Shown piece by piece: positions 14,632-57,810 of a DNA stretch of 64,000 bases; position 1 is the first letter of the stretch; each line of letters starts with the position of its first letter. Origin of the DNA: a virus; IMG/VR virus record IMGVR_UViG_3300022752_000035, positions 31,985-95,984 of that record. One strand, written 5' to 3'. The notes below the pieces were generated by a model that was not told the origin of the DNA, did no database searches, and saw only the letters and a program-made list of their open reading frames with translations. Made by a program: the position numbers and the translations under genes.

Positions 14632-15420
14632 ATGGAAGAATCAATTTCAATTAATAGTTCAGAACTTAATAAAATTACTTCAATCACAGATAATAGCCTT
14701 ATGAATGAATCAAAAGTCGTACCACCAAAGCTCTTTATAAGAAATAATTATGGTTTATTAGAAAATGATAATATTAATTATGTATTTAATGATGATGGAT
14801 CTATTAATTGGAGAGCTATGGTTAAAAGTCAATATCTTGTACCTAATCGTCAAAGGACACAAGAAACAGATGTATCTAAATTAGAAGATAAAGATTTGCT
14901 TATTCTTCTTGGCGGTATTAAAGAGCTCGCTCAAATCAGAGGTTTTACAAGCGTTGAATATAATGTAGTTACAGCAACAGATAATTATTTTGCTACATCT
15001 TGTAGAATTACTTGGATTCCAAATTACGAAACAGAAAATCGCCCAGTTGTATTTGAAGCGCTTGCAGATGCTTCTCTAGTCAATACTAAAGATTTTGCTC
15101 GTTATTTTTTAGCAGCGATTGCAGAGAATAGAGCTTTTGTTCGTTGTGTACGTAATTTCCTAAAAATTAACATTGTATCACAAGAAGAGCTAGGTGATGC
15201 AAAGTTGGGTCTTGTAGCCAAAGAAGATGCTGAAAAAGAAAATCCAATGAATCCCACTGTTTTATTGGAGAGAATTATGCAAGAAAAAAATATTTCTTTT
15301 GAAATTCTAAAGAAAAAACTTATTAAAGAAAAATTTGATGGTGCAGATAGTTTCAATTCAATAAAAGATGTTCCAAAAAGTAAAGTTTTTGAATTGATAG
15401 AGAGACTTAAAAAAATCTAA
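14632..15420 (+). CDS. Rad52/Sak-like ssDNA annealing protein (putative)
   Basis: GGIKELA...EALADA...AIAENRAFVRCVRNFL resembles the Rad52-fold 'A.T.A..RA.R' helix. Confidence 0.5.
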   Translation: MEESISINSSELNKITSITDNSLMNESKVVPPKLFIRNNYGLLENDNINYVFNDDGSINWRAMVKSQYLVPNRQRTQETDVSKLEDKDLLILLGGIKELAQIRGFTSVEYNVVTATDNYFATSCRITWIPNYETENRPVVFEALADASLVNTKDFARYFLAAIAENRAFVRCVRNFLKINIVSQEELGDAKLGLVAKEDAEKENPMNPTVLLERIMQEKNISFEILKKKLIKEKFDGADSFNSIKDVPKSKVFELIERLKKI

Positions 15421-18400
15421 GTTTTAACACATAAAACTCCGCCACTTAACCAAACTCCTCCTTTCGGAATAAATGAATTCGTTGTTGGAAGTTTTGTCAA
15501 ATCAAAAACTATTGGTGAATGATTTGGATCTTGACCAGTTATATAAATTCCATTAGCAAAATTCAAAAACAATGTATTTTCTTGAGATATGTTTTTTACT
15601 CCAGTTGAAGCATCACTTAATACAATTGACCCAGAATTTTTAATGGTTATATTTTTTCCTAGAGCATTACTATAAGAACCACTGATTAAATTATTTGTTC
15701 CACCTAAAACGTTAGAGTATGTACCAGATACTATATTTAAACTGCCACCAAGAATAGAAGAAAAAGAATCGCTATAAATGTTATTATTATTGACGATTAA
15801 ATTACCTGATCCTCCTACGATATTAGTATATTGTAAATTTCCAGTTACTAGATTATTACTTCCCCCTAATACTGTACAAAATGCACTTTTTGGATATTGG
15901 TCATTAGGATTAAAAATATCTATAATTTTATTTGATCGTCCACCAGGAATTAAATTAAAATCTCCTATGATAGTATTATTAACTCCTCCAGCTATACTAG
16001 ATACAAGACCTTTGATATAGTTTCCAGTTCCACCACCTATAGTGGAACTTCCAATATCACTGAATCCAAAAGCGCCTAATCTTGCATAATTGAATGTACT
16101 TAATACAGATTTAGCAATGTTTAAATCTTTTTCCAAATCAGAAGCTATATATTCATATATTAAACCAGTCATTTGGTTCACAGATAATGGAGCAGATAAA
16201 CTAAAAGAAAATCCATCGTTTCCTGTATTGCTAATATTATGCAAATATATTTCGTCTAAAGATGAATAAGCTCTTCCAAAAATTTTTGGAGAAAGATTAA
16301 ATTTATCAATAAATTTAATATTTATATCTCCAGTAAATGATGCACTATTATCAATTAATATATTTTGTTGGACATCAAAAAGACCAGATCCAGTATTAGA
16401 AAATATTATATAGTTAATTTTTATTCTATCTCCTGTAGCAATATTGTCTGATAATTGTATATTTAATCCAGTTTGATAAATATTTTTCAACCTTTGCAAA
16501 TAAATATTATCATTATTTATATTTTCTATAGACAAAAAGACTTTTGGTGAATCATAATTTAAATAATTATTAAAATTTATATTTAATTCATTATTTAAAA
16601 ACCCCGTGTATGTCAAAGAATTAACATTTATCTTGGTGTTATCTATATTAAATTCTCCAGTTCTATATATAGAGACATTAACTTGCGCATCTTGATCAAT
16701 AGGTCTAGAAGTATGGAAATAAAAACCTGTTGAACTTTTTCCTGAAATAAAATGAGAGTAAATATTTTTAGAAGAATTTCCACTTTGAATAATATTACAT
16801 AATGGCGCATATCCAGTATCCAAAATGCCAGATAATAAATTTATATAAAGAAGATTTTCTCCAGATTTTAATCCTGTTTGATAAACTTGTATATTTTCTC
16901 CAGAGTATTTCCCAGTAAATCCTAAAGAATTGATATTTATATAATGATTGTTGTCTTTTAACTCTGCGCTTAAAGTCAACCTTAAATCTGAAGTATTACC
17001 AGATATAGCTCCCAGAGGAAACCAATTTATATTATTATCGTATATATTAAAAAAGTTAATTCCTTTTCTTTCCAAAGGAATATCATATCTATACCCTGTT
17101 CCAGTAATTAATTTTTGGAAAGGATATACTTTATTAATTTCTAAATGTACTCCATCATTCAATTCTGCACCAGTAAAAAATCCTTTAATTCCAACGAAAT
17201 AATCAAGCAAAACATTTTCTTCTAAAACATTTGGAAAATCTATATAAAACCCAGTTCTATTTAATCCACTTATGTTTATAGATTTATAAACTCCATTATT
17301 TCCAATTAGATTAGGCATGATTATTAATTCGTTTGAATTAACAAAAGGTTGAGTAAAATTAATTTTATAAGTTTTTGATCCTAAATTTAATCCAGTTCTT
17401 TCCGTTTTAAATTCGCAGACACTATTTCCCGTTCCTATAAATGATCCAGAATAAAGATTGGGAGATAGAAGACTGATCCAATTATATATCTTTATTTTAT
17501 TATCGTTATTAATATTTGGATATACATCTAAAACATAATCAATTGTAGTGATATCAGAAATTTTATCTACTTTATAAATATTATTATTACTTTCTATATT
17601 AGTAAGAATCGCTAGTTCATCTGTAAATAATTGAGATGGATATTCTATTAAATATATATCAGCTTCATTATTAATATTTTTAATAAACATTTGATTCGCT
17701 ATAGATGAAAGACCAGTTGAAGTTGCATCAATTGTATTTCCAAATCCCCCAACTATATTACAAAAAGACCCTAATAATGTATTGTTTTCTCCACCGCCAA
17801 TCGTTGAATTATCACTAAAAAAAGATTTTACTGTAGAAATTACATTATTTTTTCCAGCGATAATACTAGATCTTCTTGATCCACTGATCAAATTATTTGT
17901 TCCAAATATAAATACATTGTCAGTTTTTTTATCTATTTTATTATTTATTCCTAAAGCTACAGAAGAATCAGCCTCAACAATATTATTTGCATTTTTTATA
18001 TTTTTAGAAGTAGTTACTACTCCAGATAAAGGCCCCAAAATATCTAAACCTTGACCATCAAACTTAATATATCCGTCTTCATTGCCAACTCTAAATTTTG
18101 GTTTATTAAAATTATATCTATTATCATAACCTAAATAAAATCCACTGCCTTCATCAACATTTTTGTCATTTACAGTTTTAATATAGCCACTTAATATACC
18201 TTCTTGGCCTATATTTAAAGCGTTGGTTATATTTGATTCTTCAGCTAATAATATCTGAGTTGCGGTTGCAGCAAATTCATTAGTGAATGGTATCCAATTT
18301 GGATTTCCAGCTTGAGGCTCAGAGTCTATATTAGTATAAGCTGCATACCAATGATTGACTCCTTCTCTTGAATATTTTACAACATCTCTTCTTAAATTAC

Positions 18401-22602: not shown

Positions 22603-23574
22603 TTATGCTAAAGTTAGCATCCTTATTTGTTGATTTGTTATATTCTTAACTCTAGGAACAACAGCAGTGATTGTATTTCTATTATTTATTACAAAACTAT
22701 CAGCTTCATATTCTCCAAAAAATACTTGAGCCACATAATTAAAGTTAGTACCATTTATTTTAATTTTATCTTTATAGCGACCAGATGTAGGAGTAAAATC
22801 AGTTATAGTAGCTTCTTCAATAACATTAAACTGTCTAATAGTCAACTCGTTAGTCAAGAATTCTTCAGATTTTGCTTGAAAAGTTTTTTTAGTTAAAAAT
22901 CCAGTCACGCCATATCCTTGAGTTATAAGAGATGTTCCAAAAGGCGCAGTACCTAACACAACTCCAACTCGTGATCCAGAGATTTCTAATAATGGATTTA
23001 AATTATCACAAGTTATATTTAAAGTAGTCTCCTTTAATCCAAAAACTCCTCTTCTTTCATAAGTATCACCAATATACATTTCTGGTCTTATATCAGTAGA
23101 ATAACTGTAATTAGCGTTTAAATAGGAGCCAGTTAAATTTTGATTATTAAAATTACTAATGCTAATTTCATTAACATGTACAATAGATTCTGAGTAATCT
23201 GCATTATCATATACTGGAGAAAAAGATCCAGTAGGAGATCTAAAAAATAAAATCTCTGTTGTACAGACTATCGGATTATGCGGTGCAAATCTAGCGTTAA
23301 AACTTTTTATATAACCAGTTTGTTGAATTCCACCAAAATCAAATTTTACGCCATCATCTAAATACAATAAATTTTTAATTGGATCTTGTCCAGTATAATA
23401 ATAACTAAAACTGAGTGATCCTTGAATGGTATTATCTGGTCTAACATCTTCAGCATGTCTTTGTCCAAGTTCTATGTATGGACTAATTTGAGCCTCATAT
23501 GACATTTGAGCCTCAGTAGCAATAATCAATTGATTATTTATTTTTAAACTTACATTTTTTCCATTATAAAACAT
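22603..23574 (-). CDS. tail-tube-like protein with C-terminal IPT domain
   Basis: Duplicated tube motif (AQMSYEAQISPYIELG; ANYSYSTDIRPEMYIG), then ITDFTPTSG...IKINGTNF. Confidence 0.6.
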   Translation of the reverse strand: MFYNGKNVSLKINNQLIIATEAQMSYEAQISPYIELGQRHAEDVRPDNTIQGSLSFSYYYTGQDPIKNLLYLDDGVKFDFGGIQQTGYIKSFNARFAPHNPIVCTTEILFFRSPTGSFSPVYDNADYSESIVHVNEISISNFNNQNLTGSYLNANYSYSTDIRPEMYIGDTYERRGVFGLKETTLNITCDNLNPLLEISGSRVGVVLGTAPFGTSLITQGYGVTGFLTKKTFQAKSEEFLTNELTIRQFNVIEEATITDFTPTSGRYKDKIKINGTNFNYVAQVFFGEYEADSFVINNRNTITAVVPRVKNITNQQIRMLTLA

Positions 23575-23575
23575 A

Positions 23576-30771: not shown

Positions 30772-33700
30772 ATGCCAAAAAAATGTAAAGATTGTGATCC
30801 AAATAAATATATCGAAGGGATAGCCTGGAGAGGAAAAAATGGCATTTCTTATGATGGTTATACTATATATAATGATGTTGGGAAACCGCTTGCATCAGAT
30901 TCAACATTGGCAGATGTAAACGATTTAGTAGATGCTTATAATCCAATTTTTTCTCAAAGCACAACCTATCCAAATCCATTACCAGAGTCTCCCACGAATG
31001 GTGTAGAAATAACTGGTATAGATCGAGGCCAAGGGTTTTGGTTTGTATGGAGTTTTATAAATGGTTTAGTCATGTATGGTACGCCTGGAGTTGGAGTAAA
31101 TGCTGCAAGTATAATTAGCTCAGGAACAGCTTCGGCAAGACTAGGTCAAGGCTTTTCTTTTAATGTACTTTTAGATCAAGTAGCCTCATATTTAACTTAT
31201 ACCGATTTTGGTGTCCTTGCAGACACAAATACAGATGATAGACTAAGATTTAGCAATACAAATAGTAATACAATACCATTTATCAAGACTAAAATTAATT
31301 ATGTAGGATATTATACTGGAATTATTCAGTCCGTCTTAAATGGAAATAGATATGTCAAAATAAATAATGTGACTCAATTAGAAACTTTTAAGGCTTATAA
31401 AAGTTTAACAATAAAATGTACAGATGCAGAAGGCAATGACCCAATATATGTTACTAGTGCACCAACTATACATGTTTTTAAAAACCAAAGTTTTTCTTAT
31501 TCTTTGACTACAAATTTAGCATCAAATAAATTTAATGCTTATTTAGATCAAAGTTCTTTAAATATTTTAGCAAATTTAGGACTAGCATGGAATCCTAGTT
31601 CTAAAACCATAACAGGAGTAGGTTCAACAAATTTAAGTTCAGAGATAAAAAATACAAATTTAAATTTTACTATTTATGGGCCAAATGCAGACGCAGGAAA
31701 TAGAATAAGTTTTAGTTTAAATTTATTATATGGAGCACAAAATACTCAAACAGTATTACCAACGGTTAGCGCTACAACATTTAATCGAGTTGTAGGTACA
31801 AAATTTGAGCAAGGATTAGCAGGCTTAAATAATAAGCATACAATTATAGGAATTTCTTCTTTACCAGAAGGATTAGTTTTTAATTCTACTAGTAAATCTA
31901 TTACTGGAACACCAAAACATGCGGGTACTTTTTATGCATATGCAAGCTGTTCTAATGCTAGAGGATCTAGCTCGAAAGTGACATTAACTTTTAATTTTAG
32001 TCCATATTCACTCAATAATGATAAATCTCAAAGCACTTTTCCAAGTAAAATAAATTTACCTTCATGGGATTTTAATGCTATAAAAAATAATAAAATTGTC
32101 TTAGATCTATATACTACTGGAGATGATATTATATATTTTAAAAAAATTAATACAAATGAATTTGAAACTATAAGAAAAAATGGGGAACCAAATAATATCA
32201 CAAGTAGAGGAGGAAGGATTTCTACAACATCTTTTTCTCCTGGTCAAGGACAAGAAGGCGAAACTTGTTTTTGGATTAAGATTGATGATCCAACTAAAAC
32301 AAATGTTAAAAATCCAGAACTTGATATCTCTATAGAAGGAAATTATGCAATACAATATTATTCTACGAATCAAAAAGATTTAGTAGGAAATGTTTGTTAT
32401 ACTCCAGACGTTAATGCAAGTGGTCCAGCATCTACTCCATTTATACAAAATTTAACAGTAACCGCAACAGATACAATTAAAACAGCTTTTAGCGCAAATC
32501 CAGCCGAAAATATGCCAACCATAACGGTTAGCCCCACTCAAGTAGAGCATCAGGTCGTATTTGATCTTGGAAATTTGGGTGTGGGTGTTACTCCAAATTT
32601 TTCTACAGTCACTATAGTAAAACAGAGATTATCTGGACGAGAAGTAGTCACTGTGACTCCAGGATCACAATATAGAAGTACCATAGAAAATAGCTCAATA
32701 TTTGCTCGACAAAGATTATCTAAAAGTGGACTTTTAAAATATCCAAATGGAATTCCTGCCTCAGAAGGCACATATACATTTTACGTTATTCTTGCTGATA
32801 CATGCACTTTTAATAAAAGCACGCAAAGATTTAGTTTATATATAAATACATATACGCCAAGAGCAGGAGATGTATATTCTTGTAAATATAGAAGTACATG
32901 TTTTCCAGCTGGCACAAAAATACATACTCCACATGGAGATAAAAATATAGAAGATTTAAAAGAAAATCAAGAAGTTTATGGATATGATGAAGATCAGAAT
33001 TTAGAAATATGTAAAATATCTCAAATATTTGACGAAGGAAAAGATCCTCAACCAATTACTAAAGTAACATTAGAAGATGGATCTACTATAAGATGCACAA
33101 AATCTCATCCATTTTTAACAGAAAATAATGAATATAAATTCCTTATAGATTTAAATATTGGTGATTATTTAATGACTTTTAATAAAAAGAAATTAAAAAT
33201 TATCAACATTGAAAACGATGGATTTGAACTTGTGTATAATTTTGAAGTAGAAAAATATCATAATTATATTGCTGATAAAATTTTTGTACATAATAGAGGT
33301 GGAGGAGGTAGAAGAAAGGATAATAAAGAATATTATCAAGATTATACATTACCAAATTCAACTGTACCGAGCAACTGTGTTAAAGTAGTCAGTAGAGCAG
33401 GAGATCGTCAACAAGTAGATAATTATGGTTATAGATATGCAAATAAGTTAAAAGACACAAAAGATATAGGAATAACATCTTTAACAAATATATCTTTATT
33501 AGATATTCTTGGAGAAGGTCCTATTGAGGGAATTGTAGACTATGATATTGTGCCTAATGACGGAGCTCAAATTGGTGATATAGGATATAAAAATGGAGTG
33601 AAAATAGTCAAATATGAAGGTCCAGCATCAATAGTAAGATCTATTTATTGGAATGAAATACCTGTTGCAGATAATACATATCCAGTTAAAGGTTCTTTGA

Positions 33701-39302: not shown

Positions 39303-42300
39303 TTAGCGACCTAAGTCTCGTCCTTTGCTTCCTTGATATAATACTCCGCCTGGACGTTGTTCTTCTACAATAACTTTCAATATTTGTTGTCTTAGTAATT
39401 CTGCTAATACTCTGGATCTTTCCATAGTCTTTTTGAACTTTTCTTGATCTGTTTCTTGATTGGTTCCAGAATTTTGATCTTCTTGTTTCGTTGAATCTGT
39501 TGTTTTACCATTTTGATCAACGTTAACATTTATACTAATATTATTTGTTACTCCTCCTGCTCCTGTTGTATCAGAAGTAGTTGCACCACCATCTTCTCCT
39601 TGAGCTTTAGTTCCTTTATTTTGTTCTTCAATTCCTTTATTTAATTGTTCTAAGGATTTTACTAATTTTGTAATAGATTCTACAAACTGATTTCTAGAAT
39701 TATCTTGTTGATTAGAAGCTCCACCACCGACAGAAGGTAATGCTGTTCCAACTGGCCCACCTTCTGCAAATCCATTAATTTGACCTCTGTTTAATCTATC
39801 AAAAAATGGTTGTCCAAAACGATCTACTGTGTCTTTTCTAATAACATATTCTCCGCCCATAAGCATAGCAGGAACATCATCTTTAGCTGAACTTCCTCCG
39901 TAAATCATTCCTCCTGTTGCTCTACTTGCCCAACTTGGAGTGATTCCTAATCTACTTCCAGTAGAAAACCAATTACTAAAAACACTTCCTAAAGAATTAA
40001 ATCCAGATTGATAACCTAGTCCACCAAATCCACCAAAATATTGGCTACCAAATGCATATGGGCTATAAGTATTTGGCGTCATTGGAAATTTAAACATATT
40101 AAATGCAGACAAAGATGAAAATGGACTAGCGCCAATATAATTTAAATAGTTATTAAATCCTCTTTCTCCAAATGCAGAATATCTATTTTTGAAGTTATTA
40201 CCATAAAATGATGAAAATCTTGATGCTAATTTTCCGTAATCTCCTTTATTTTTTAGATCATATAAACTTCCAATACTTTGATATAAAGTAGGAGCATTTC
40301 CAGAAGTTTGATTTACAATATTTTGTAAATTTTGGAAAAATGGCAGGATTTGATCTGGAGATATTTGATTGATTCCTAAAAAGTCTTGTTGAGTAATAGC
40401 TTGAGCAACTGCTTGGGTAGTTTGTGGAGTGACTTTAGTGCCTCTTAAATAATCTCCCATAGCAGGAGATGGAAAACTCATTCTAGTTTGATATCCAGCA
40501 TTAGGATTAAAAATACTTTTTTCATATAAATTTCCGCCTAAATTATATAAAGCATTATAACCTTTACCAGCTAAATTTTTCATTCCACCTAAACTAGCCA
40601 TCAATGCTCCACCAATTCCACCAGCTCCTCCTCCAATCGCTGGCATTTTTATTCCAGCATTAGAAATTGTATTTGTAACGCCACCTTGAGGAATATTAAA
40701 TGGAGTGGCATTTAATCTATTAGTATTGAAAGCAGCAGAACTACCAGTAAAGGTAGGAGTATTAGTTGATTTTAAGAAGTTTGTTACAACATTAGCACTT
40801 CTTGCTTGATTTGCAAATGGGTTAGGCTGTATTCCTATGGTATTTATTCCATTAGTTATACTATTTGTTGGACCAGAAAAAGCTGTTAATGGAAATGATT
40901 GTTTTGATGGTAATCCAAAACCAGCCATAACAGCAGGAGTATTTGTACCAGCTATATTTCCTGCTGGAATACCCATATTCATTGCTGCAATTTTTGTTGC
41001 ACCAGTTTTATTTAATTGAAAATCAAAATGAGTTCCAGTCGCTCCAGGAGTTTGAGGCCCTTCAAAATTTAAAGAATAATCTTTTTCAGAAAGACCCATG
41101 CTAGATAAATAATCTTTAATTTGCTGTTTACCAGCTGTATAATCGTTTAATGTAAAGTCTCCTTTAAATCCAGTTCTATGAGATGTTCCTGGAGCTCTGA
41201 CTCCAGCATGATAAAGATCATTCATTGCAGTTAATCTGTTGAAATTAGAACCTAAAGCTCCTTGAATTCCACTCATTAAATTTAATAATTCTGGACTATT
41301 ATATCCACCACCAAAAGCTTGACCACCCATTTTTTGTAAATCTGCATACGTACTATTAGTTGTTAATCCCATTTGAGCTAATGTGTAAGTATTTCCATCT
41401 GAACCTTTAACTCTTAAATTTAAAGCGCTCGCTGGAAGATATTGATTTGCCATACCACCAACTTGATAACCACGAACTAAACCACCTTTTGCGTAACCTC
41501 TGCTATAACCAAAAGGGTTTGTATTTTGATTTAAGAAATCATAAACAAGATTTCCACGCCCAGGAGCAATAGGAGCTACAGGAGAAGCAAAATTTAAAAG
41601 ATAATCTTGTTGAGCATTTTGAGTATAAGTTTGAAAACCTGCTGGCGCGCCTAATCCAACACCAAATTGAAATCCGCCGATACTAGAGGTTGGAGCAAAA
41701 TTTTGTCCTCCCATTCCTCCGCCAAATCCACCTTGATTTCCAAATTGTGGAAATAATTGAGCTTGTTGAGCGAATGAATCTCCATATCCTGTTCTTTGAC
41801 CTCTTTCAATTGCATCGCTTATAGCTTTTTTCTGATCATCTGTAAGCTTATTACCTACTATTGCTCCACCAGGTTGACTAGAAAATTGTGAGAATTTTCC
41901 TCCTAAAATATCTTGAAAAAGTCCTACTCCTGTATTAAGTACTCCACCTAATATGCCTCCAAGTCCTCCCCCGCCACCTCCCCCGCCAAAACCACCTAAA
42001 AATGGACCAGCAAGATTCATACCAAAGTTCAATAATCCACCAATTAACATATTTGATTTTGCTCGATTATATTGATCCATCCTTTGTTTATTTATTTCAT
42101 CCGCTTGTCTTTGAGCTTCTTTTCTTTGTTCTTCAACTTGACGATATTGTTCATTATATCCTGTTTTAAAATTAGCTACTTGCTCTTGGTAACTTTGCAT
42201 TCCTAAAAATCTTTGAGTTCTTAGAGCGTTCATTGGATTATTCTCATCCATTAAACTTCTACTACTTAATAGATCTGATATATTAAATCTTCCTGTTAAA

Positions 42301-45300
42301 GCTGGGACATTACTTAATTCTTCTGGAGCATTTACTGTAGTTTTAAATGCTTCTGGCATATAATTTTCAATTAATTTTTGTCCATCAGGACCATAGAAAT
42401 CATAACTATTATTTAGTAATGCATTAACGCTTCCACCGCTAGCATATCCTTTTATCATTCCACCTCTATTAAGCATATTTAAAGCGTCTATACCATATTT
42501 ATTAACTGCACTTTTTCTTAACACATATTCGCCATCTGTAAGCATCGCTGGAATATCATCACGAACTCCACTTCCACCTTGAACATGACCACCAGAACTA
42601 TATTTACGAATTATCCCACCTTGAGCTTTTCCTCCAAATAATCCTCCAAAAAGACTACTTAATATTCCACCTCCACCGCCTTCGTTATAACCTCCACCTC
42701 CAGTTAATCCACCAAGCAAACTTCTCATACCAATACTAAATTGTTCTTTAATAATTTGTTGAGATATACTTAATAACATATCTTGAAAAGCTTGATCTGC
42801 TGTTTTTGTTCCATCAACAAATGCGCCAAATGCATCTTCGAACCCAGTTTGTAAATTATCAGCAAGATTTGCAAAAGATTTATTAATTTTATCTGCTGTT
42901 GTAGCAGCATTATCACCAAAACGATCAAAGAAAGAATTAAGTGGATCAAATCCTTCTTTAAAATTACCTTGTTTTAATGATCTTTCCATTAAACTTTGAC
43001 GAGCTGCAGCTCTTTCATCAGAAAACATATATTGAGAATTTTTACCAAATTCAATTTTATCTATTGCTAATTTTAATCTTTCAAAAGCTTGAGTAGTTGT
43101 AATAGCTCCACTATTCCAATCTTTCTGTATCTCTGCGGCCTTTTGAACATATTCGCTTAAATATTTTACTCTATCTGCGCCATAACCTAATTCATCACTT
43201 AATTGTTTATATCCTGTACTAAATTGTTCACCAAAAGCTTGGCTTTTACCAACGCTTAATTTCTGTTCTATTGAATTATAATCTATATTACCTAAAGCAG
43301 CAGAAGTAATTCCTCCAGGAAGAGAAAATTGCCTTTGTAATGCTTGAAGATCTGTAATAGGTTTTATACCTTGAGTAAATTTAGCAGTTTCTTCTGCTAG
43401 TGCTTGTGCATATTTTTCTACGCTTGTTTGATGATCTTTCCAAGCTTGTATATATTCTCCTAATGTTCCTTGTTGATCTACTTTTTGTAATTCTTCTGCT
43501 ATTAATTTAGAATATTCTCCAGTACTAACTAATCCATCTACTAAATTCTTGATTCCATTTATACCTCCTGATTGATAGGCTGCTTGAAGTTTTCCAATAT
43601 CAACACTACCTATAGCTTCTCCTGTTTTACTAAAGTTAGCAAAAAGATCAGATAATTGTTGTCCAGCAGTTTGTATGTAACCTCTATAACTCATTTGATC
43701 TGTTTGACGCATTCCTTTAATTTTTTCTTGTGGAGTTTTTAAGAAGTCACTAGTGAAAAAATCATACCATTTTTCACCTGCTAAATCATTTATTTTTTGA
43801 GTTGTGCCTAATAGTCCACCACCAGCCGCAAGTCCTTTTGATTCTCTTTGAGCTTTAATTTGAACTTCACTTATTTTTTGTCTTAATTCTGCAGTATCAC
43901 CTATTTTTCTATAAAGATCAACGATTTCATCTCCAGCTCCTGGAAGCGCTTGATTTAATTGAGTAATACTTTTAGCAAAATCTTGCTCAGATTTATTTCT
44001 TAAATCTAATCTTGTTTTTGCATCTAAATCTGATCTGCCTTCTATTGAACTTAAAGTTTCTAAAGATACTGATAAATTTTGAGTCGCAGCAGAAATACTA
44101 TTAAATTTTTCTGTTGAAGTTTCTATAGATTTTGCAACATCTGGCATGATATCATTTAATTTTTGAAATACATCATAAGCCGCCATAATACCACCAACTC
44201 CAGCACCAATAGCTGCCCCAGGCAATCCACCAACAGTAAATCCTAATCCAGCATAAGAAGCTGTTGTTCCAAGTCCAGATATTCCAGCTTTAAGGGCTCG
44301 TCCTCCACGAGTGCTTTCGTCTCCAATAAATTGAGCAGCTGTATCTGTTAATAATGGTGCGGCTAATGCAAGTCCAGCTCCATATCTACTAAAAGCTCTG
44401 CCAGCGACTCCGCCAATTCCACCTACAAAACTTCCACCTTTTCTAGCAAATATTGGAGTTTGAGCCGATAAAGTTTGTCTTTGAGATGTTTCTTCTCTTA
44501 ATAATGAAGTTCTTTGAGATTCTAATTCATTTAATCTTGCTCTATTTTTCTTTGAATTTTTTGAAAGAGCTAATATTTCAGATTCTACTCTTCCTCTTTC
44601 ATTTAAGATTGCTCCTAATCTTTGCTCTTCAACTTTATAATTAGATCGAGCTTGATTTCCTCCAAATCCTTGTAAAATATAAAATAAACTCATTGGGTCC
44701 ATAGCCGCAAAATTAGGTATAAATCCTGCAGACATCATACTTTGCATTTTCTTAGAATTTTGAATAGCATTACCAATTCCCTCTGGATGATCTCTCATTA
44801 CTGCTGCAAAATTTGGTTGAGTTTTACCATCTCTAACATATAATCCAAGTCCAGGTTTAAAATCTAATACTCCTCTTCCACCCATCTTTTCTTCAGTACT
44901 TAAAGCTCGATCTAATGGAGAAAAATTAGGAATAAAACCAAGAGCTTTTGTTTTACCTTTAGTCTTTAATGGATATCCCTTACTGGATGCGATTTTATCC
45001 GCCATACTATTTGCTTGAGATGGATTTAAAGCATTCTTAACTTCTCCAAGAGAAAACATCGCCAAAGGTCCTGCGCCTTTAAAAGTTGTTGAAAGTTTTT
45101 TTAATTCATCCGAGCTAAGATCTAACGGAGCATTAGGATCATCTACTGCGCTAAATATTGCTGATTTTAATCCTGCTTCAAAAATACCTCCAATTGCAGC
45201 TTCTATTGTAGAACGATTAAGATTCGCATTAACATAGTTATCAAATCTTGCATCATCTACTAAATCTTTTGGTTTTAAAGCTGCCTTATCTATAAATGTA

Positions 45301-47645
45301 TAAACTTGTCCTTTTATAGCCTTTTGGACATCTTCATATAATTGCGCACCTAATCCACCATTAGGTCCTGGGAAACCAAACGTTGAGAAAGTGAATTCTG
45401 GAGTATCATCTCCACGTTTACCACTATGTTTTAAAGCTTTAGCTGTTGTAGAACTTAAACCTCCTCCACTAAAAGCAGGATAAACTAATACTGCTCCAGT
45501 TTTTTCAATCTCTTCTTGACTTAATGCTCCTTTTCCTCTAGCAAGTACAGATTTTTCTGTTTGTTGTTTATAATATATTAAAGCTTGATCTTTATTTGCT
45601 GTTGGTCTTAGGAAATAACCTCCGCGAGAACTTCCATAAACTTGGTCTGCAAATGCAGGAGATTTGCGTAATGTATCATACATATCACCGCTAATAGGTT
45701 GTGCACCTTTCGTAACAATTCTATTTAAAGAGGCTGCAAAATTAGGTATAAATCCTTTACTAGCATAAGGATCAATACCATATTTATTTTTAAATTTTTC
45801 TTTATAATTTTTTCCTGCATCACTATTTTCTGGAGGCATAATTCCAGGTTGAGATAATCCAGAGAATTGTTTTACTGTTTCTGCATCGTTATAAGTTACT
45901 CTTCCATAATTTGGAATACTCATAGAGCGAACATTTCCAGGCATATATCCACCAGCGATTGCTCCCATAACTTCTCTATTAGTACTAAAATTAGGTATAA
46001 AACCTTGACTCTTTGTTCTAGCTGTTATAACTCCTTTTTCAGAAGTAACTCCTCTACCCATTAATCCTCTTGTTAAGCTTGTAGCAATAGCTGTAGATTG
46101 TTGACGAGCTTGAGATTGAGCTTGAATTACAGTCAATATATCTTTTTCAACTTGTAAAAGTGAAACTTGTTTATTTAAAATATTTTGAATTAATTGAGGA
46201 TTTTGAGCTAGAATATTATTAATACGTTCTTGAATTTGTGCTTGAGCTTGAGCCTCTTTATTTAATCCTAAAACTGTTCTAACTGCATCTGTTGTGAATT
46301 TAGCAAGATTACCAAATATTTTTATAAAAACTCCAATTAAAAGCGCGAGTCCTGGTCCAGAAATAAAACTTCCAATTCCTTCAAAAATTCCTTTACCAAT
46401 TTTACTTCCAACAGAATCGCCTTTAACATCAAAAGCTTCTAGAGCACTATTAATTCCACCTAAAACTTTTTCTATAGCTGGTGCAAAACTTAATCCACCA
46501 ATATCACTTCCTACTCTAGTTAAATTTGCTACAGTTTTATTTAAAAGAGCAGATAAAGTTTTATTTAATTCTTCGTTTCTTCGTATAGCTTCATCTGTTG
46601 CACCTTGAGAAATCTTTAATGCATTTCCATATACAGAATATTGTTTACTTAAATCTCCTAAAGCAGCTTTTAAAATATTAATTTGGAAAACGCCACCAAC
46701 TAATTCTGCTACTTGAGCTTTTTGTGCAGATCCTAATTCATCAAATTTACTTGCTAATCCAGTTAATACTTGAATCGCAGGAGCAGTATTTCCATTAAGA
46801 TCTCTAACAGCTACTCCAAGAGCTTCTAATTGATCTAATACTTCTGTTCTTTGAACTCTTGTGAAAATAGTTTTTAACGAATTTCCAATTACTGCGCCAC
46901 CTCTTGCTGTAGTCTGATTGACGCTTGCAACAATTGCTAATAATTCATCAAAGCTAACTCCAACATCTTGAGCTGAACTGCCAACACGTTTAAGAGCTTC
47001 TGCAAGATCTGCAGAGCTAACAGCAAAAGCTGCATCAACACTTGCTAATTTATTAACAATTTGCGTTGAATCTAAAGCGGTATTATTAAATGAATTAATT
47101 GAAGCAGTTAGAGCTTCTACGCTTGAAGCTGCATCTAAACCAGAAAGACGAGCAAGTACTAATGCATCACTAGTTCTTTTTAAAGTTTGTTCTACTGTTA
47201 AACCTTGACGAGCTAACTCACCAGCAGCGGTAGCGACAGTTGAGAATGCTTGACCACTATTTTTAGCTATTTCAAATAATTTGTCACCAAATTGTCCAAG
47301 AGTTTTTTGACTAGCTCCTAAAATAACATTAATATCTGTTAATGATTTTTGGACTTCTATTGTGCTACTAATTAAAGATGTAAAAGCTTTTTGTATATTA
47401 TATATTGCTCCTGCTGAAGCACCGAATGCAATAACACGAGCATTAGAAGCGTCTAGTGATTTTTGAAACTCATTTGCTGCCCCAGTAATTCTACCTAATG
47501 GTTGAGTAAAAGCTTTTGCATTAATCCCAGCGCTAAAATTAAAACCTTTACTTTCTAATCGTTTTAAAGCCGCCGATACATCCCTTTCCATTTGGGATGT
47601 ATTTGCTGATAAATTGACTTGTAGATCTCCTATATTTCCAGCCAT
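39303..47645 (-). CDS. tape measure protein (TP901-type core) with extra domains
   Basis: ELARQG...AFAVSSADLAEALKRVGSSA...TARGGAVIGNSLKTIFTR; 2780 aa; downstream of chaperones and tube. Confidence 0.9.
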   Translation of the reverse strand: MAGNIGDLQVNLSANTSQMERDVSAALKRLESKGFNFSAGINAKAFTQPLGRITGAANEFQKSLDASNARVIAFGASAGAIYNIQKAFTSLISSTIEVQKSLTDINVILGASQKTLGQFGDKLFEIAKNSGQAFSTVATAAGELARQGLTVEQTLKRTSDALVLARLSGLDAASSVEALTASINSFNNTALDSTQIVNKLASVDAAFAVSSADLAEALKRVGSSAQDVGVSFDELLAIVASVNQTTARGGAVIGNSLKTIFTRVQRTEVLDQLEALGVAVRDLNGNTAPAIQVLTGLASKFDELGSAQKAQVAELVGGVFQINILKAALGDLSKQYSVYGNALKISQGATDEAIRRNEELNKTLSALLNKTVANLTRVGSDIGGLSFAPAIEKVLGGINSALEAFDVKGDSVGSKIGKGIFEGIGSFISGPGLALLIGVFIKIFGNLAKFTTDAVRTVLGLNKEAQAQAQIQERINNILAQNPQLIQNILNKQVSLLQVEKDILTVIQAQSQARQQSTAIATSLTRGLMGRGVTSEKGVITARTKSQGFIPNFSTNREVMGAIAGGYMPGNVRSMSIPNYGRVTYNDAETVKQFSGLSQPGIMPPENSDAGKNYKEKFKNKYGIDPYASKGFIPNFAASLNRIVTKGAQPISGDMYDTLRKSPAFADQVYGSSRGGYFLRPTANKDQALIYYKQQTEKSVLARGKGALSQEEIEKTGAVLVYPAFSGGGLSSTTAKALKHSGKRGDDTPEFTFSTFGFPGPNGGLGAQLYEDVQKAIKGQVYTFIDKAALKPKDLVDDARFDNYVNANLNRSTIEAAIGGIFEAGLKSAIFSAVDDPNAPLDLSSDELKKLSTTFKGAGPLAMFSLGEVKNALNPSQANSMADKIASSKGYPLKTKGKTKALGFIPNFSPLDRALSTEEKMGGRGVLDFKPGLGLYVRDGKTQPNFAAVMRDHPEGIGNAIQNSKKMQSMMSAGFIPNFAAMDPMSLFYILQGFGGNQARSNYKVEEQRLGAILNERGRVESEILALSKNSKKNRARLNELESQRTSLLREETSQRQTLSAQTPIFARKGGSFVGGIGGVAGRAFSRYGAGLALAAPLLTDTAAQFIGDESTRGGRALKAGISGLGTTASYAGLGFTVGGLPGAAIGAGVGGIMAAYDVFQKLNDIMPDVAKSIETSTEKFNSISAATQNLSVSLETLSSIEGRSDLDAKTRLDLRNKSEQDFAKSITQLNQALPGAGDEIVDLYRKIGDTAELRQKISEVQIKAQRESKGLAAGGGLLGTTQKINDLAGEKWYDFFTSDFLKTPQEKIKGMRQTDQMSYRGYIQTAGQQLSDLFANFSKTGEAIGSVDIGKLQAAYQSGGINGIKNLVDGLVSTGEYSKLIAEELQKVDQQGTLGEYIQAWKDHQTSVEKYAQALAEETAKFTQGIKPITDLQALQRQFSLPGGITSAALGNIDYNSIEQKLSVGKSQAFGEQFSTGYKQLSDELGYGADRVKYLSEYVQKAAEIQKDWNSGAITTTQAFERLKLAIDKIEFGKNSQYMFSDERAAARQSLMERSLKQGNFKEGFDPLNSFFDRFGDNAATTADKINKSFANLADNLQTGFEDAFGAFVDGTKTADQAFQDMLLSISQQIIKEQFSIGMRSLLGGLTGGGGYNEGGGGGILSSLFGGLFGGKAQGGIIRKYSSGGHVQGGSGVRDDIPAMLTDGEYVLRKSAVNKYGIDALNMLNRGGMIKGYASGGSVNALLNNSYDFYGPDGQKLIENYMPEAFKTTVNAPEELSNVPALTGRFNISDLLSSRSLMDENNPMNALRTQRFLGMQSYQEQVANFKTGYNEQYRQVEEQRKEAQRQADEINKQRMDQYNRAKSNMLIGGLLNFGMNLAGPFLGGFGGGGGGGGLGGILGGVLNTGVGLFQDILGGKFSQFSSQPGGAIVGNKLTDDQKKAISDAIERGQRTGYGDSFAQQAQLFPQFGNQGGFGGGMGGQNFAPTSSIGGFQFGVGLGAPAGFQTYTQNAQQDYLLNFASPVAPIAPGRGNLVYDFLNQNTNPFGYSRGYAKGGLVRGYQVGGMANQYLPASALNLRVKGSDGNTYTLAQMGLTTNSTYADLQKMGGQAFGGGYNSPELLNLMSGIQGALGSNFNRLTAMNDLYHAGVRAPGTSHRTGFKGDFTLNDYTAGKQQIKDYLSSMGLSEKDYSLNFEGPQTPGATGTHFDFQLNKTGATKIAAMNMGIPAGNIAGTNTPAVMAGFGLPSKQSFPLTAFSGPTNSITNGINTIGIQPNPFANQARSANVVTNFLKSTNTPTFTGSSAAFNTNRLNATPFNIPQGGVTNTISNAGIKMPAIGGGAGGIGGALMASLGGMKNLAGKGYNALYNLGGNLYEKSIFNPNAGYQTRMSFPSPAMGDYLRGTKVTPQTTQAVAQAITQQDFLGINQISPDQILPFFQNLQNIVNQTSGNAPTLYQSIGSLYDLKNKGDYGKLASRFSSFYGNNFKNRYSAFGERGFNNYLNYIGASPFSSLSAFNMFKFPMTPNTYSPYAFGSQYFGGFGGLGYQSGFNSLGSVFSNWFSTGSRLGITPSWASRATGGMIYGGSSAKDDVPAMLMGGEYVIRKDTVDRFGQPFFDRLNRGQINGFAEGGPVGTALPSVGGGASNQQDNSRNQFVESITKLVKSLEQLNKGIEEQNKGTKAQGEDGGATTSDTTGAGGVTNNISINVNVDQNGKTTDSTKQEDQNSGTNQETDQEKFKKTMERSRVLAELLRQQILKVIVEEQRPGGVLYQGSKGRDLGR

Positions 47646-49793: not shown

Positions 49794-50023
49794 TTTTTCA
49801 AATCAAAATCTAATTTAGCAATATCTTCCTCTATCTCTCTTATGGTATCATTACCATAATCAAGTACTCTTTTACGATACTTTTGATATGCTTCATCACT
49901 ACTATTATACTTTGAAGCATGAGCATCTTCAAGAATAAATAAGAACTGTTTATATAAATTAGTTATTTTTCTACGAAGTTGAAATATAACATATTCCTTT
50001 ATTTTAGGATCGCCTTTTTCCAT
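49790..50023 (-). CDS. hypothetical protein
   Basis: 77-aa ORF with its own GTGTAA motif (50058-50063) and a triple AAGG leader. Confidence 0.65.
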   Translation of the reverse strand: MEKGDPKIKEYVIFQLRRKITNLYKQFLFILEDAHASKYNSSDEAYQKYRKRVLDYGNDTIREIEEDIAKLDFDLKK

Positions 50024-50064
50024 AGATTTACCTTTTAACCTTTTGCCTTACTATATATTACACC

Positions 50065-50102
50065 AAAAAAATACCCCGTCAAGGTTGAACCTGACGGGGT
50101 AT
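50065..50102 (-). terminator. intrinsic terminator after the major tail tube gene
   Basis: ATACCCCGTCAGGTTCAACCTTGACGGGGTAT hairpin followed by a T-run. Confidence 0.88.
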
Positions 50103-50124
50103 CTTATATAAGAATTATTATCTA

Positions 50125-51225: not shown

Positions 51226-51277
51226 ATTAGATTCTCCTATATTATCTTTTATTACACTTAAATTTAATCAAATTCTA

Positions 51278-52743: not shown

Positions 52744-53186
52744 TATGAAGCGGATTCTAAAAAGAAAACAAAATGGTCCAATGTAATAAATTTTTTAAGA
52801 GTATAATCTGTGATAACATTATATGGCTTATTATCAATCATAATTTTTTCAGTTTTTCCATGGCCTACAATAAAATCTTTAGCTTCTTTTTCAACTTTTA
52901 TTTTAACAATACCTTTACTTACTCTGCTTTTTAATTCTGGTAATAATTCAAGATCTTGTTTTGGATTATATTTAACTTTAGCTTGAAATGCGCCGCTGAC
53001 TGGTATATAAGTGATATTATTTTTAATTGCAGCCTCACCATATCCAGGAAGTGAATTTGTAGAAAGTTGATTGATTATTTTTTTAGGTTCTTTGTAGATT
53101 ACTATTTCTCTAGAGAAGGTATCAAAAAGATCACCTAAAACTCCTGTTGCATTTGCTATCTCAATCGCTGATAATAAACTTGGCAT
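52743..53186 (-). CDS. probable head closure/stopper protein
   Basis: Synteny; beta-rich, IMIDNKPYNVI. Confidence 0.45.
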   Translation of the reverse strand: MPSLLSAIEIANATGVLGDLFDTFSREIVIYKEPKKIINQLSTNSLPGYGEAAIKNNITYIPVSGAFQAKVKYNPKQDLELLPELKSRVSKGIVKIKVEKEAKDFIVGHGKTEKIMIDNKPYNVITDYTLKKFITLDHFVFFLESAS

Positions 53187-53704
53187 TAGATTGTTGACCT
53201 TAGATAAATTTTACCTGCATTATCTCCTTGATAAATGCCAGCGACAGTATCATCGCCAGCAACTTGAAGAGGTTTAGCTTCATTAAGATTATAATTTTTA
53301 GTCAGAACTGTTAATTCATCATTAATTTGTTTTCTTAATGCTGCATAATTTTTAGCAAGTTCATTTTTATTAATTTTTGTTACAGAACTTCCTTCATCAC
53401 TTATGCTTACTACGCTATCTTGTGTCGCAGCATATAAAGCGTTACGAAATAGTCTTTCATAAAAGTGAATACCATAAATCATTTTAAATATGCTTTTTTC
53501 TATATCTCCAAAAACATCTCCTGAGTCTTCTGTAGCAGCTATCTCAAGAGTGTCTTCTGTTATATAAAATCTTTTATTAATTAAAATATTAAGATCACCA
53601 ATATTACTTCTTAACCAATAAGCTATAGTAGGAATACTAATGTCAACTGGTTCACCTAATTCATCATATAATTCAGTAGCTATGTCTACAATTTTAATGC
53701 TCAT
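53186..53704 (-). CDS. probable head-tail adaptor
   Basis: Helical with VVSISDEGSSVT; GTGTAA 10 nt upstream (53715-53720). Confidence 0.5.
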   Translation of the reverse strand: MSIKIVDIATELYDELGEPVDISIPTIAYWLRSNIGDLNILINKRFYITEDTLEIAATEDSGDVFGDIEKSIFKMIYGIHFYERLFRNALYAATQDSVVSISDEGSSVTKINKNELAKNYAALRKQINDELTVLTKNYNLNEAKPLQVAGDDTVAGIYQGDNAGKIYLRSTI

Positions 53705-53726
53705 ATAATAAATATTACACTTTAAA

Positions 53727-56700
53727 TTAATAGCAATATACTCTAACAGTATCTCTAAGCCCTGATGGATTTATAGTAAAAGCTGGCGTAAATAAAGAGC
53801 ATACTACAAAATCCCCAATATTCAATGGAACTGGCGGAGTAATTAATCCAGTAAAATTATTAGGAATATTAGTGTTTGTACTTAAAATAGATGTACTAAT
53901 TACTCCTAGAGTATTTGTTGTTGCATTAATAAAATATCCTGTAGAATTTAAAGCTGGTGAAGGTAGTGAAGTTCCTGCTATATGTTGCCAACTAGCTTTT
54001 CTTGCTGTACCGCTTTCTAATACTTGAATATATCTTCTATTAGGACCAGAAGCATTAAAACCTAAATTACCTGGTGCAAAATAATTATGACCACCACCAA
54101 TTGCAGGTTGATCACTAGTATGGTCAAATGATAATACAAAGAAATTATTTGAAGATGCAGCAGCTTCTCCAACAAGAAGAACTCCAGATCCATTCACAGT
54201 TGGTCTTGTATTTAAAGAAACATTACCTGTTATATTAACAGATATTCCAGATAAATTTAAAACATCAATTTCATTTAAATTAAAATTATTGAAAATTCCA
54301 GTACCAGAAACTTGAATATTGTTGATGAAAGTTTTATTTCCGCTGATAATTTGATTACCTGTAGTATAAATAATTGTGTCAGGTAAACTTGCTGCTTCTC
54401 CGCTAAGAAGAACTCCTGTTCCATTCACAGTAGGACGATTAGTAAATTGACCATTAGATTTTGTAACATAAGTATTTGATGCGTTTGTAGAGGTTAAATA
54501 AGCACTAAGGTCTACGCCCGTAATAAATCCGCTAGGATTATTTTTTGTATAGTAATTCGAAAGGTCTACGCCCGTAATAAATCCGCTAGGATTATTTTTT
54601 GTATAGTAATTTGAAAGGTCTACGCCTGTCAATACTTGATTTCCGCTAATATAAATATTACCATCTACTACATTTAATCCACTAGTATTAACAATTACCT
54701 TATCCATAGCTAAACCACTTCCAATATTAGTAGTTCTAAATGATATATAAGTTCCTTGTCCAGTATAACCTTGTCTAACTACCCAATCTTCTGCTGCTAA
54801 TGATCTTATTGCAGCTCTACTATTTGATGAGTATTGATTTAATCCAGAAATATAACCTCTTCCTTGCAAATTAAATAAAACATCATCTTTTAAAACTCCA
54901 GAAAGACCAGTTGGAATTCCTCTTGCTCTTCTCATTAATATTTGAGGACCATTAATTCCATAAGCATCAATTGATATACCTGCATTTTCATTTGTATTTC
55001 CAGCTATATTTAAACGAAAATCTAAATTTGATGTATCATATCCATTTCCAGTATAAGCATTAAGAGATATAGTATCTGCAAAAGTTTTATCTCCACTTAT
55101 AGTTTGTTTTCCTTTTGTTAATACTAAATTTGGATTATTTATGCTACCGCCAACAGTTAAATTATTTGTTATATTTAAATTATCATTAAAATAAGCTGAG
55201 CCACTTCCTCTTATATTTCCAGTTACAATAATATCATTTTGGAAAAGTGCATTTGAGATGAAGGTCTTAGCTCCTGCAATATTTTGTGGTCCAGTTAATT
55301 GAACATAATTCGTAAGATCTACTCCAGTAATAAATCCGCTAGGATTATTTTTCGTATAATAATTCGTAAGATCTACTCCAGTAATAAATCCGCTAGGATT
55401 ATTTTTCGTATAATAATTCGTAAGATCTACTCCAGTAATAAATCCGCTAGGATTATTTTTCGTATAATAATTCGTAAGATCTACTCCAGTTAAAACTGGT
55501 TTTCCAGAAATATAAATACTTCCATTTCCAGTAACATAAACATTTCCATCGATTAAATTAATATTTGTTCCAGAAAATTGAAAATCACTAATATTGCTAA
55601 GGTCTACAGCATTAAATATGCCAGTGCCTTGAACTTCTAAATTATTTATAAAAATTTTATTTCCACTAATAGTTTGATCGCCAGTAGTAAATATTATATT
55701 GCTAGATGAAGAATTTATATACCCACTAAGATTATTTATATTTGTTTGTAATGTATCGCCAGTATTTGTTAAATTAGTTATTGTACTAAATCTATTATTA
55801 GCATAACCACTATAATCGCTAAGATCATGATAACCCATTACTTCATCAAGAGTAGAAACATCTGTTAATCTTGTCCCTTGACCAAAATGCCAAGTTTTTG
55901 TTATATTATCAAAACCAAAAATAACTCCAGTATCATTTATACCAGTTAATCCTTCTCCAGTAACAAAGAAAATTCCTCCATCAGTTAAACCTCCAGTAAG
56001 ATTTAAAAGTAAATAAGGACTTGATATATTATTATTTGTTGTATTTAAAATTGTTTCTGTACCCGTTACATAAAGACTATTAATATAAACTTTATCTCTA
56101 AATATTTTGATTCCGTCTATACCTTGATTACCGTATAATAAAACAGAATCTCCACTTAATGCATTTATAGCATTATATAAATTAATCCCAGAAGAATTTA
56201 AAGTGCCACTTAAAGAATTAATTTTATTATTTAAAGTAGTTCCTGTTAAATCAAGATTTGTAATAGTAGAAAAAGTAGAATTAATATCTCCAGAAAATCC
56301 AGTAAATTGAGCATTAAGAACTACTGCGTCATTATTTACTAAAACTGTATTTCCATCTATTATAACAGAGCTTGTTCCAATTTTAATTCCACTTATAAAA
56401 TATCCACTGCCATAAACATAAAGATCATTTCCAATTATAGTATTAGAACCTGAAAATGTTTTCTGTCCTAAAATATTTTGATCTCCATATAATAGAACAG
56501 AATCACCGCTTAACGAATTAATCGAATTGGTTAGGTCGATTCCAGAAGCGTCTAACGCACCGCTTAACGAATTAATCGAATTGGTTAGGTCGATTCCAGA
56601 AGCGTCTAACGCACCGCTTAACGAATTAATCGAATTGGTTAGGTCACCACTTATTAAAATTCCAGTACCATTTACAGTAGGGCGAACTCCAAAAGTAATT

Positions 56701-57461: not shown

Positions 57462-57465
57462 AACT

Positions 57466-57810
57466 TTATCTCGTAGTTTCTGGTGATACTATAAATTTTC
57501 CAAGCATTAATTTTATGGTATTTCCTGTTGGAATACCAGATGGAAACCTTTCTATATCATAAACAAATTGTCCTACTGGTAAATCTTTAGTAATTGTAGA
57601 ATCTATGGTTATATTAATCGTTCCAGAAACATGACTTATAATATTAGGATTTAAATCTAATAAAATTCCTGTAGAACCATATCCATTTCTAACTTGCCCA
57701 CGGACATCATATCCGCTTAGGTTAAGTCTATTATTATCAGTATCTTTTACTGAGAGAGTTGCTTGAAGAAAATCGCCTTGATATGTAGATATATTATAAT
57801 TAGTTGCCAT
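57466..57810 (-). CDS. small Ig-like structural adaptor (BppU-N-like)
   Basis: YQGD...NLSGY..RGQVR...G.I.I.I...T..LP.G..VYDIE; GTGTAA 8 nt upstream. Confidence 0.6.
   Translation of the reverse strand: MATNYNISTYQGDFLQATLSVKDTDNNRLNLSGYDVRGQVRNGYGSTGILLDLNPNIISHVSGTINITIDSTITKDLPVGQFVYDIERFPSGIPTGNTIKLMLGKFIVSPETTR

Follow-up and report, generated by a model that had tools for sequence, protein, structure and literature searches.

Virions of the mycobacteriophages Che8, Corndog and Myrna are reported by Freeman and colleagues (2023) to be glycosylated by phage-encoded glycosyltransferases (GTs), the modified proteins reportedly being subunits of the capsid and the tail tube whose C-terminal extensions are rich in Ser/Thr. 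The E. coli adhesin TibA is heptosylated by TibC, a WaaC-like GT-B enzyme with a four-cysteine finger that binds the beta-helix substrate, and one of the two mapped heptosylation sites of TibA, Ser313, lies in the sequence Q-N-S-G-G (PMC4358343). In eukaryotes, the enzyme TMEM260, resident in the endoplasmic reticulum, performs O-mannosylation at the sequon Px6Px3Px2GGx3T (bioRxiv 10.64898/2026.09.21.753134). The BppL protein of phage TP901-1 consists of a helix (residues 17-30), a linker (31-39) and a beta-prism (40-63), the latter formed by six-residue repeats, each segment of which closes with a polar residue (PMC3893620). The present analysis concerns two long tail fibres, of 1824 and 1244 amino acids (aa), encoded together with a pair of GT-like proteins on a 64,000-nt stretch of viral DNA (positions 31,985 to 95,984 of the IMG/VR record IMGVR_UViG_3300022752_000035, hereafter the window). 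An initial annotation of the window had described an enrichment of the dipeptides Ser-Gly and Thr-Gly (SG+TG, or (S/T)G) throughout the virion and had proposed it as a possible modification sequon for the GTs. The (S/T)G dipeptide is rather likely to be a recurring structural element of the modules from which the fibres are built, and not a virion-wide signal.

The Ser/Thr-Gly excess in two tail fibres

Expected numbers of SG+TG were obtained from 1000 shuffles per protein for the 47 open reading frames (ORFs) of the window. Both fibres greatly exceed their expectation, and four smaller tail proteins follow with lower scores (Table 1), that of the 114-aa protein not being significant over 47 ORFs. 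Pooled, the six enriched ORFs contain 207 SG+TG versus 74.9 expected, whereas the 24 remaining ORFs of the virion block contain 127 versus 132.9 expected. Hence, the bias belongs to the fibres and not to the virion; besides the two fibres, four small tail proteins at most are enriched. The manual counts of the initial annotation were reproduced exactly (19 sites in residues 1-305 of the 1824-aa fibre, five in the 114-aa protein and seven in the 846-aa DnaE), and the 1244-aa fibre is as dense as claimed, with 81 sites. However, the TIG/IPT protein encoded between the two fibres, which had also been described as dense, has seven SG+TG and equally seven GS+GT. The statement that the bias spans unrelated folds fails across the virion but holds inside the enriched proteins, in which sites are found in immunoglobulin (Ig)-like arrays, a beta-sandwich region, helix ends and beta-prism segments.

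Other long proteins of the same block serve as internal controls. The gpJ-like tail-tip protein and the tape measure show no excess (Table 1), every window of gpJ having a z-score below 1.7, including its first ~700 aa, which are described as Ig-rich in a separate note of the initial annotation. The z-scores of gpL (-0.35), gpI (-0.96) and a 386-aa ORF presumed to encode the capsid protein, without family match (0.05), are similarly unremarkable. For the tail terminator and the tube named in the initial annotation, no Pfam or PHROGs match was obtained that would identify either. No ORF stands out in the 32 kb of the record outside the window, a 266-aa ORF with a z-score of 3.2 owing it to three sites only. 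Within the 1824-aa fibre, the excess is found in residues 1-800 and 1201-1600 and is absent from residues 801-1200 and 1601-1800. Two further proteins may be mentioned here. The 1018-aa protein encoded after gpJ is biased in residues 1-200 (five of nine Gly follow S/T, z 4.3) and not in its remainder, and an S/T/G-rich protein of 897 aa encoded outside the window (G000:C1:13722-16415) shows the reverse pattern, with 53 GS+GT and 34 SG+TG (about 36 SG+TG expected).

That the excess reflects nothing but composition, local S/T/G patches, internal repeats or a word at the DNA level is highly improbable. It withstands shuffling within each protein and persists in 200-aa windows, all of which have z-scores of 2.7 to 5.9 in the 1244-aa fibre. 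The reversed dipeptides GS+GT are at expectation in every enriched protein (29 against 85 SG+TG in the 1824-aa fibre and 24 against 81 in the 1244-aa fibre), and therefore co-located patches rich in these residues cannot explain it. When well-populated dipeptides are ordered by enrichment, SG and TG come out on top in all three separate protein sets, the pairs scoring between them occurring only once or twice, and SG is slightly depleted in the remaining proteins of the window. Internal repeats do contribute, since three arrays of a 54-bp unit in the 1244-aa fibre gene each add sites and inflate its raw count. However, the excess survives their removal, and collapsing the internal repeats of this fibre by removing later copies leaves 50 sites versus 20.8 expected (z 7.5). 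These arrays arose very recently by in-frame duplication of 18-aa units, and the length of the 1244-aa fibre is probably variable in the population. A DNA-level word is ruled out by the spread of the S/T residues preceding Gly over seven codons and by the unchanged use of Gly codons. The sole shift in the six enriched ORFs is that TCA and ACA are under-used before Gly (mostly GGA), with ACT, AGT and AGC over-used, which avoids Shine-Dalgarno-like AGGA inside genes.

The excess is furthermore kept by homologues, including those of the 1824-aa fibre at 41-70% identity, of which 33 out of 33 have SG+TG z-scores between 6.7 and 14.7. Among 120 listed homologues of the 1244-aa fibre, nearly all show the bias (median z 8.5) and nearly all contain the BppL_N domain (PF18338). 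GS+GT is flat in both sets. The (S/T)G bias is thus a trait of particular fibre families. In the 1824-aa family, S/T residues preceding Gly are kept in 80% of homologue residues versus 61% for other S/T. At 43-46% identity, 47 to 55 of the 85 sites are still in place and new sites occur at 1.3 to 1.6 times expectation, implying that the excess is carried mainly by fixed positions. A turnover of sites that maintains their density, as in glycan shields, was rejected because the excess of new sites is only weak.

Sites in repeated fibre modules

The 1244-aa fibre matches PF18338 with 72.6 bits (cut-off 25.8, E 1.3e-20) and aligns to residues 11-59 of the TP901-1 BppL chain, which cover its helix, linker and neck (E 0.004-0.012), a match at the level of sequence only. 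The protein appears to be made up of helix-end, linker and beta-prism modules of the BppL_N type, together with 18-aa repeats and RPTVNG(S/T)G units. Its (S/T)G sites are mostly spaced 14, 6 or 12 residues apart, the six-residue spacing recurring 10 times. Hydrophobic residues occupy positions -1 and -3 of (S/T)G pairs. The sequence of TP901-1 BppL shows a corresponding arrangement, in which S31-G32 follows the helix and T39-G40, A45-G46, T51-G52 and N57-G58 are located at segment boundaries. Across 802 prism motifs, T occupies the first site in 69%, Y in 13%, F in 7% and S in 3%, and the second is S in 68%, G in 10%, N in 8%, D and A in 3% each and T in 2%. S and T seldom replace each other, and these residue spectra fit a strand former at the first and a turn former at the second.

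In the 1824-aa fibre, residues 1-720 are predicted by AlphaFold2 (AF2) to form a tandem, all-beta array of Ig-like domains (pLDDT 78). Searches with this model using Foldseek retrieved titin, PirB, plexin A1 and GhpA with E-values of 1e-12 to 1e-13, matches that show an Ig-like fold for the model and not the IPT type specifically. Several of these N-terminal domains carry IPT-type words (P-x-I-S-P-x-T-G ... I-S-G-x-x-F). No Pfam family, including PF01833, was matched by residues 1-720 at an E-value of 0.01, and PF01833 was matched in only three of 21 homologues. Residues 1190-1610 are modelled as beta-sandwich domains (AF2, pLDDT 83.6) without clear solved relative. Two segments, ~969-1019 and ~1600-1750, align to head repeats of UspA1 (E 5.8e-5) and coincide with parts that have no (S/T)G excess (z 1.1-1.4).

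The structural explanation builds on the statistics, the conservation across families and in position, and the match to a solved module. In the 1244-aa fibre, (S/T)G would end short helical segments (L-S/T-G) and, as in the TP901-1 stem and neck, would sit at corners of the beta-prism with its six-residue segments (G-x-x-x-x-S/T). In the 1824-aa fibre, part of the sites would belong to IPT-type Ig domains (P-x-I-S/T-G; hydrophobic-x-hydrophobic-S/T-G-x-N-hydrophobic) and others to further beta domains. Gly would provide the backbone turn, with the small hydroxyl residue preceding it acting as a polar closer of the strand or helix. We infer that the S/T hydroxyl has a hydrogen-bonding role and that selection acts against the labile Asn-Gly and Asp-Gly pairs. 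The sites would be so numerous because the modules are repeated many times, partly through the very recent 54-bp duplications, and because this AT-rich lineage uses S/T where T4, T5 and gpJ use Asp, Asn or Ala before Gly.

Several observations weigh against this explanation. Strict patterns assign only 38 of the 81 sites of the 1244-aa fibre to named modules (five types), most of the others reading hydrophobic-x-hydrophobic-S/T-G. In both AF2 models of the 1824-aa fibre, (S/T)G is not significantly concentrated at strand ends as defined by DSSP. A location of the sites at strand ends in the models is therefore unsupported, and the simple strand-end picture is not demonstrated for this protein. 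In its residues 1201-1600, 24 of the 32 Gly are preceded by S/T in a fold that has no solved relative. Classical fibres lack the bias, since T4 gp34, gp35, gp36 and gp37, T5 pb1 and the tail proteins of TP901-1 have no SG+TG excess (z -1.5 to 1.5). The bias is thus not generic to fibres, and the notion that all beta-rich fibres look so is ruled out. The same applies to Ig arrays, as the unbiased first ~700 aa of gpJ, described as Ig-rich in a separate note of the initial annotation, indicate that an Ig fold does not in itself demand the bias. Finally, none of the genomes shown to lack GTs yielded a long homologous fibre.

Glycosylation and chemical durability as alternatives

The two GT genes overlap by 14 nt on the plus strand and belong to the replication block, where they follow the genes for DnaE and a Whirly-like protein. 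The 643-aa GT4-like protein contains a DUF4214-like stretch (E 0.002), and a GT9 N-lobe was placed at its end by the initial annotation only. It also carries a CxxC-x14-CxxC knuckle (C273, C276, C291 and C294) that is kept in 14 to 16 of 16 homologues (42-83% identity), as are C325, C354 and C359. The pattern of these cysteines suggests a metal-binding insert. In the 392-aa protein, the match to PF01075 spans profile positions 102-232 of 247 only and hence corresponds to the C-lobe, so that the match does not extend over both Rossmann lobes in one chain. Against solved structures, the profile of the 392-aa family retrieves only the lipopolysaccharide heptosyltransferase WaaF (1PSW, E 9e-5). 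TibC was absent among the matches to all PDB chains of both the 392-aa protein (E up to 1) and its family profile (E up to 10), and an Atlas look-up with the GT9 C-part gave no usable lead. The pair is conserved across the lineage, with open frames of ~630-665 aa in many related records and at least 439 members in the 392-aa family.

In light of these enzymes, (S/T)-Gly could be, at least in part, a candidate O-glycosylation acceptor for the conserved GT pair, which would coat the distal fibres with sugar in a manner comparable to TibC/AAH, although this appears unlikely. The bias combines strength with directionality and does not extend beyond the most exposed appendages, the fibres of T4 and T5 are free of it, and the GT pair is kept throughout the lineage. 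The GT block converges with the 1824-aa fibre gene and ends 800 bp from its 3′ end. However, the GT genes form part of the replication block and are encoded on the opposite strand, and none of them is preceded by the word GTGTAA that is seen before several structural genes. The heptosylation of TibA at a Ser-Gly and the possible resemblance of the four-cysteine finger of TibC to the knuckle of the 643-aa protein speak for such a role, whereas the structure searches with the 392-aa GT9-like protein point to WaaF only. At the fibre itself, S and T each keep to their own position instead of being interchangeable, and around one third of the prism motifs carry F, G, N, D or A in their place. T is not enriched at position +3 of the pairs. 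Furthermore, the same motif is present in the solved BppL of TP901-1, a phage in which no GT family was found, and the dipeptide is part of modules that fold there without glycan, the solved BppL protein being reportedly recombinant. The presumed capsid ORF and gpJ have no excess. For DNA glycosylation as another role of the GTs, no hydroxymethylase of the thymidylate-synthase type was found in the 96-kb record, which is 63% complete.

The distribution of GTs among phages with related fibres has been used to weigh the same possibility. Most related records are fragments, and wherever a fairly complete one encoded a long homologous fibre, some GT was encoded as well. The viral record behind locus L068 (G007), the only one rated 100% complete, is devoid of PF00534, PF00535, PF01075 and PF13692, but the ORF directly after its fibre gene encodes a PF13524 glycosyltransferase, followed by an FkbM methyltransferase, which rules it out as a complete relative without GT. 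Similarly, the cultured Streptomyces phages Wentworth and Gibson encode a glycosyltransferase directly after the homologous fibre gene, followed in Wentworth by an FkbM methyltransferase, and the BppL_N fibre of Wentworth (gp31) has 45 SG+TG versus 23 expected. This gene order, in an unrelated GC-rich lineage, provides circumstantial support for a link between fibre and GT. The GT and FkbM cluster of the Streptomyces phages is in itself a candidate for the modification of fibres or glycans. Neither PF00534, PF00535 nor PF13524 was found in TP901-1, two Helicobacter prophages and Flavobacterium phage 11b, which have 0-2 prism modules by pattern count and SG+TG z-scores of -0.7 to 3.2. It is doubtful that a two-chain complex of a GT4-like and a split GT9-like protein attaches O-glycans at high density to Ser/Thr-Gly turns in the distal fibres of this widespread lineage of uncultured marine siphoviruses, and that the same logic operates in Streptomyces phages.

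Chemical durability has also to be considered as the driver of the bias. Asn-Gly and Asp-Gly are prone to deamidation and isomerisation, and long-lived extracellular fibres might avoid them and use Ser/Thr-Gly. This proposal is compatible with the structural explanation, for which it would name the selective force, yet the probability that it is correct is low. Both NG and DG are below expectation in the two fibres (observed/expected 0.30 and 0.54 for NG, 0.68 and 0.75 for DG) and above it in T4 gp34/37 and T5 pb1 (1.2-1.3 and 1.3-1.6, respectively), and NG is the most depleted X-Gly pair of the 1824-aa fibre (z -3.9). The depletion of NG extends to the remaining proteome outside the fibres (61 versus 88 expected, z -3.3) and is strongest, at 0.27-0.54 of expectation, in the tape measure and the fibres. 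However, gpJ of the same virion keeps both pairs (NG 1.1, DG 1.5) and favours D, A and E before Gly, the helix-end sites are left unexplained, and the argument rests on general protein chemistry. The bias may partly be a habit of the lineage, in which S/T replaces N/D at Gly turns.

Genomic setting and comparison with known systems

The window covers the final 64 kb of a viral record of 95,984 bases (CheckV completeness 63%) and has a G+C content of ~29%. The full genome is probably about 150 kb long, judging from the size of the record and its rated completeness. Contigs related to the window come from marine and other metagenomes, and tblastn searches of cultured phages with both fibres, one prism module and the presumed capsid ORF gave no match. 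Of the smaller enriched proteins, the 569-aa protein has no Pfam or PHROG match and is conserved next to the fibre in related loci (L001-L005), and the 283-aa protein has no family match in Pfam or PHROGs. The 276-aa protein matches phrog_290 ('minor tail protein', E 2.2e-5). The 114-aa protein, kept upstream of the fibre in 11 related loci, matches phrog_1084 (E 2e-18) and also phrog_3304 ('L-shaped tail fiber protein assembly').

Some observations concern the neighbourhood of these genes. The 262-aa protein encoded between the GT pair and the 1824-aa fibre has a 70%-identical homologue (L035:8440-9195) on a more distant contig, where it converges with an (S/T)G-rich fibre of 2493 aa, and its Atlas features give a weak lead to single-strand annealing proteins (scores 0.88-0.89). 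GTGTAA, of which the whole window holds 16 copies only, is found 7-27 nt 5′ of the start codons of nine ORFs when strand is taken into account (ORFs at 1046, 4408, 23576, 24439, 39303, 50125, 53186, 57466 and 62380). The 1824-aa fibre and the gpJ-like protein are of equal length, which is probably a coincidence, as their family matches, domains and dipeptide patterns are wholly different.

Table 1. Positions and main properties of the features discussed. Positions are those of the window unless a locus is named; SG+TG is given as observed versus expected.
Feature	Position	Strand	Evidence or property
DnaE, 846 aa	8365-10905	plus	replication block
GT4-like glycosyltransferase, 643 aa	11521-13452	plus	PF00534 26.6 bits (cut-off 26.4); phrog_2170 E 3.9e-15
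GT9 (heptosyltransferase) C-lobe and ~240 aa without assigned fold, 392 aa	13439-14617	plus	PF01075 E 4.2e-13
Protein between GT pair and fibre, 262 aa	14632-15420
Fibre-like protein, 1824 aa	15417-20891	minus	SG+TG 85 vs 31.2, z 11.3
Protein just upstream of 1824-aa fibre, 569 aa	20888-22597	minus	SG+TG 20 vs 6.3, z 6.2
TIG/IPT protein	22603-23574
Minor-tail-like protein, 276 aa	23576-24406	minus	SG+TG 8 vs 2.8, z 3.7
gpJ-like tail-tip protein (internal control)	30772-36246	plus	PF13550 and Hint domains; SG+TG 20 vs 21.8, z -0.45
Protein encoded after gpJ, 1018 aa	36246-39302
Tape measure, 2780 aa (internal control)	39303-47645	minus	PF10145 E 3.8e-30; SG+TG z -2.0
Tail-region protein, 283 aa	51278-52129	minus	SG+TG 8 vs 2.9, z 3.4
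Modular fibre, 1244 aa	53727-57461	minus	SG+TG 81 vs 29.6, z 11.4
54-bp array in 1244-aa fibre gene	54507-54634		95%, 2.4 copies
54-bp array in 1244-aa fibre gene, perfect	55305-55490	minus	3.4 copies; encodes 18-aa unit with two (S/T)G each
54-bp array in 1244-aa fibre gene	56504-56645		100%, 2.6 copies
Protein just before 1244-aa fibre, 114 aa	57466-57810	minus	SG+TG 5 vs 2.1, z 2.4
Presumed capsid ORF, 386 aa	58303-59463
Lambda-type tail tip			gpL, gpK (JAB and NlpC/P60 domains), gpI, gpJ (Hint domains)
Fibre-GT(PF13524)-FkbM cluster, GC-rich lineage	L068:3836-6101
Fibre-GT(PF13524)-FkbM cluster, GC-rich lineage	L095:11614-13858		Wentworth gp32-gp34

If the structural explanation is correct, the finding is an ordinary one, in that a striking dipeptide bias can arise from repeated fibre modules such as beta-prism corners, helix ends and Ig-domain motifs. 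It would call for caution, as dipeptide biases should not be read as modification signals without chemistry, and would offer a cheap metagenome signature for such modular fibres, namely 45-55% of Gly preceded by S/T together with the avoidance of Asn-Gly. If, on the other hand, the sites were glycosylated, an abundant marine lineage would possess a sequon and a phage system for protein glycosylation that are both new, with a bearing on host recognition and on the persistence of virions.

Among the known systems, that of TibC/AAH acting on TibA/AIDA-I, with hyperglycosylation of Ser on a repetitive beta-helix, offers a possible parallel, as the phage encodes a heptosyltransferase-like C-lobe and a GT with a four-cysteine knuckle. 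It differs in that this knuckle is found in the GT4-like and not in the GT9-like enzyme and that no sequence match to TibC was obtained at E-values up to 10. In addition, bacterial autotransporter heptosyltransferases modify Ser only, whereas both S and T are enriched in the phage fibres. As in the mycobacteriophages said to glycosylate their virions, the phage carries its own GT genes, which may modify virion proteins; unlike in these phages, the presumed capsid ORF is unbiased and the GT genes are part of the replication block. IPT/TIG domains (PF01833) are a known glycosylation target, and the N-terminal part of the 1824-aa protein resembles them as a tandem Ig-like array with IPT-type words. 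However, the acceptor of TMEM260 is not described as the residue before Gly, and the 1824-aa protein has no Pfam TIG match. To our knowledge, TMEM260 has no homology to the soluble GT-B type enzymes of the phage.

The trimeric autotransporter adhesins YadA/UspA1 (PDB 3NTN, 3PR7) share head repeats with the 1824-aa protein, in segments that show no (S/T)G excess. The receptor-binding proteins of TP901-1 and Tuc2009 (PDB 2F0C, 3EJC, 3D8M, 4V96) consist of a helix bundle, a short linker and a six-residue beta-prism, an order that the 1244-aa fibre probably shares judging from its sequence, with (S/T)G at the ends of the helix and of the segments. TP901-1 BppL has no overall SG+TG excess (z 1.4), and its second prism corner is occupied by Ala, where the fibre of the window has Ser. 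Moreover, TP901-1 has a single copy of the module in 163 aa, whereas the fibre of the window repeats it many times within a 1244-aa chain, mixed with other repeats.

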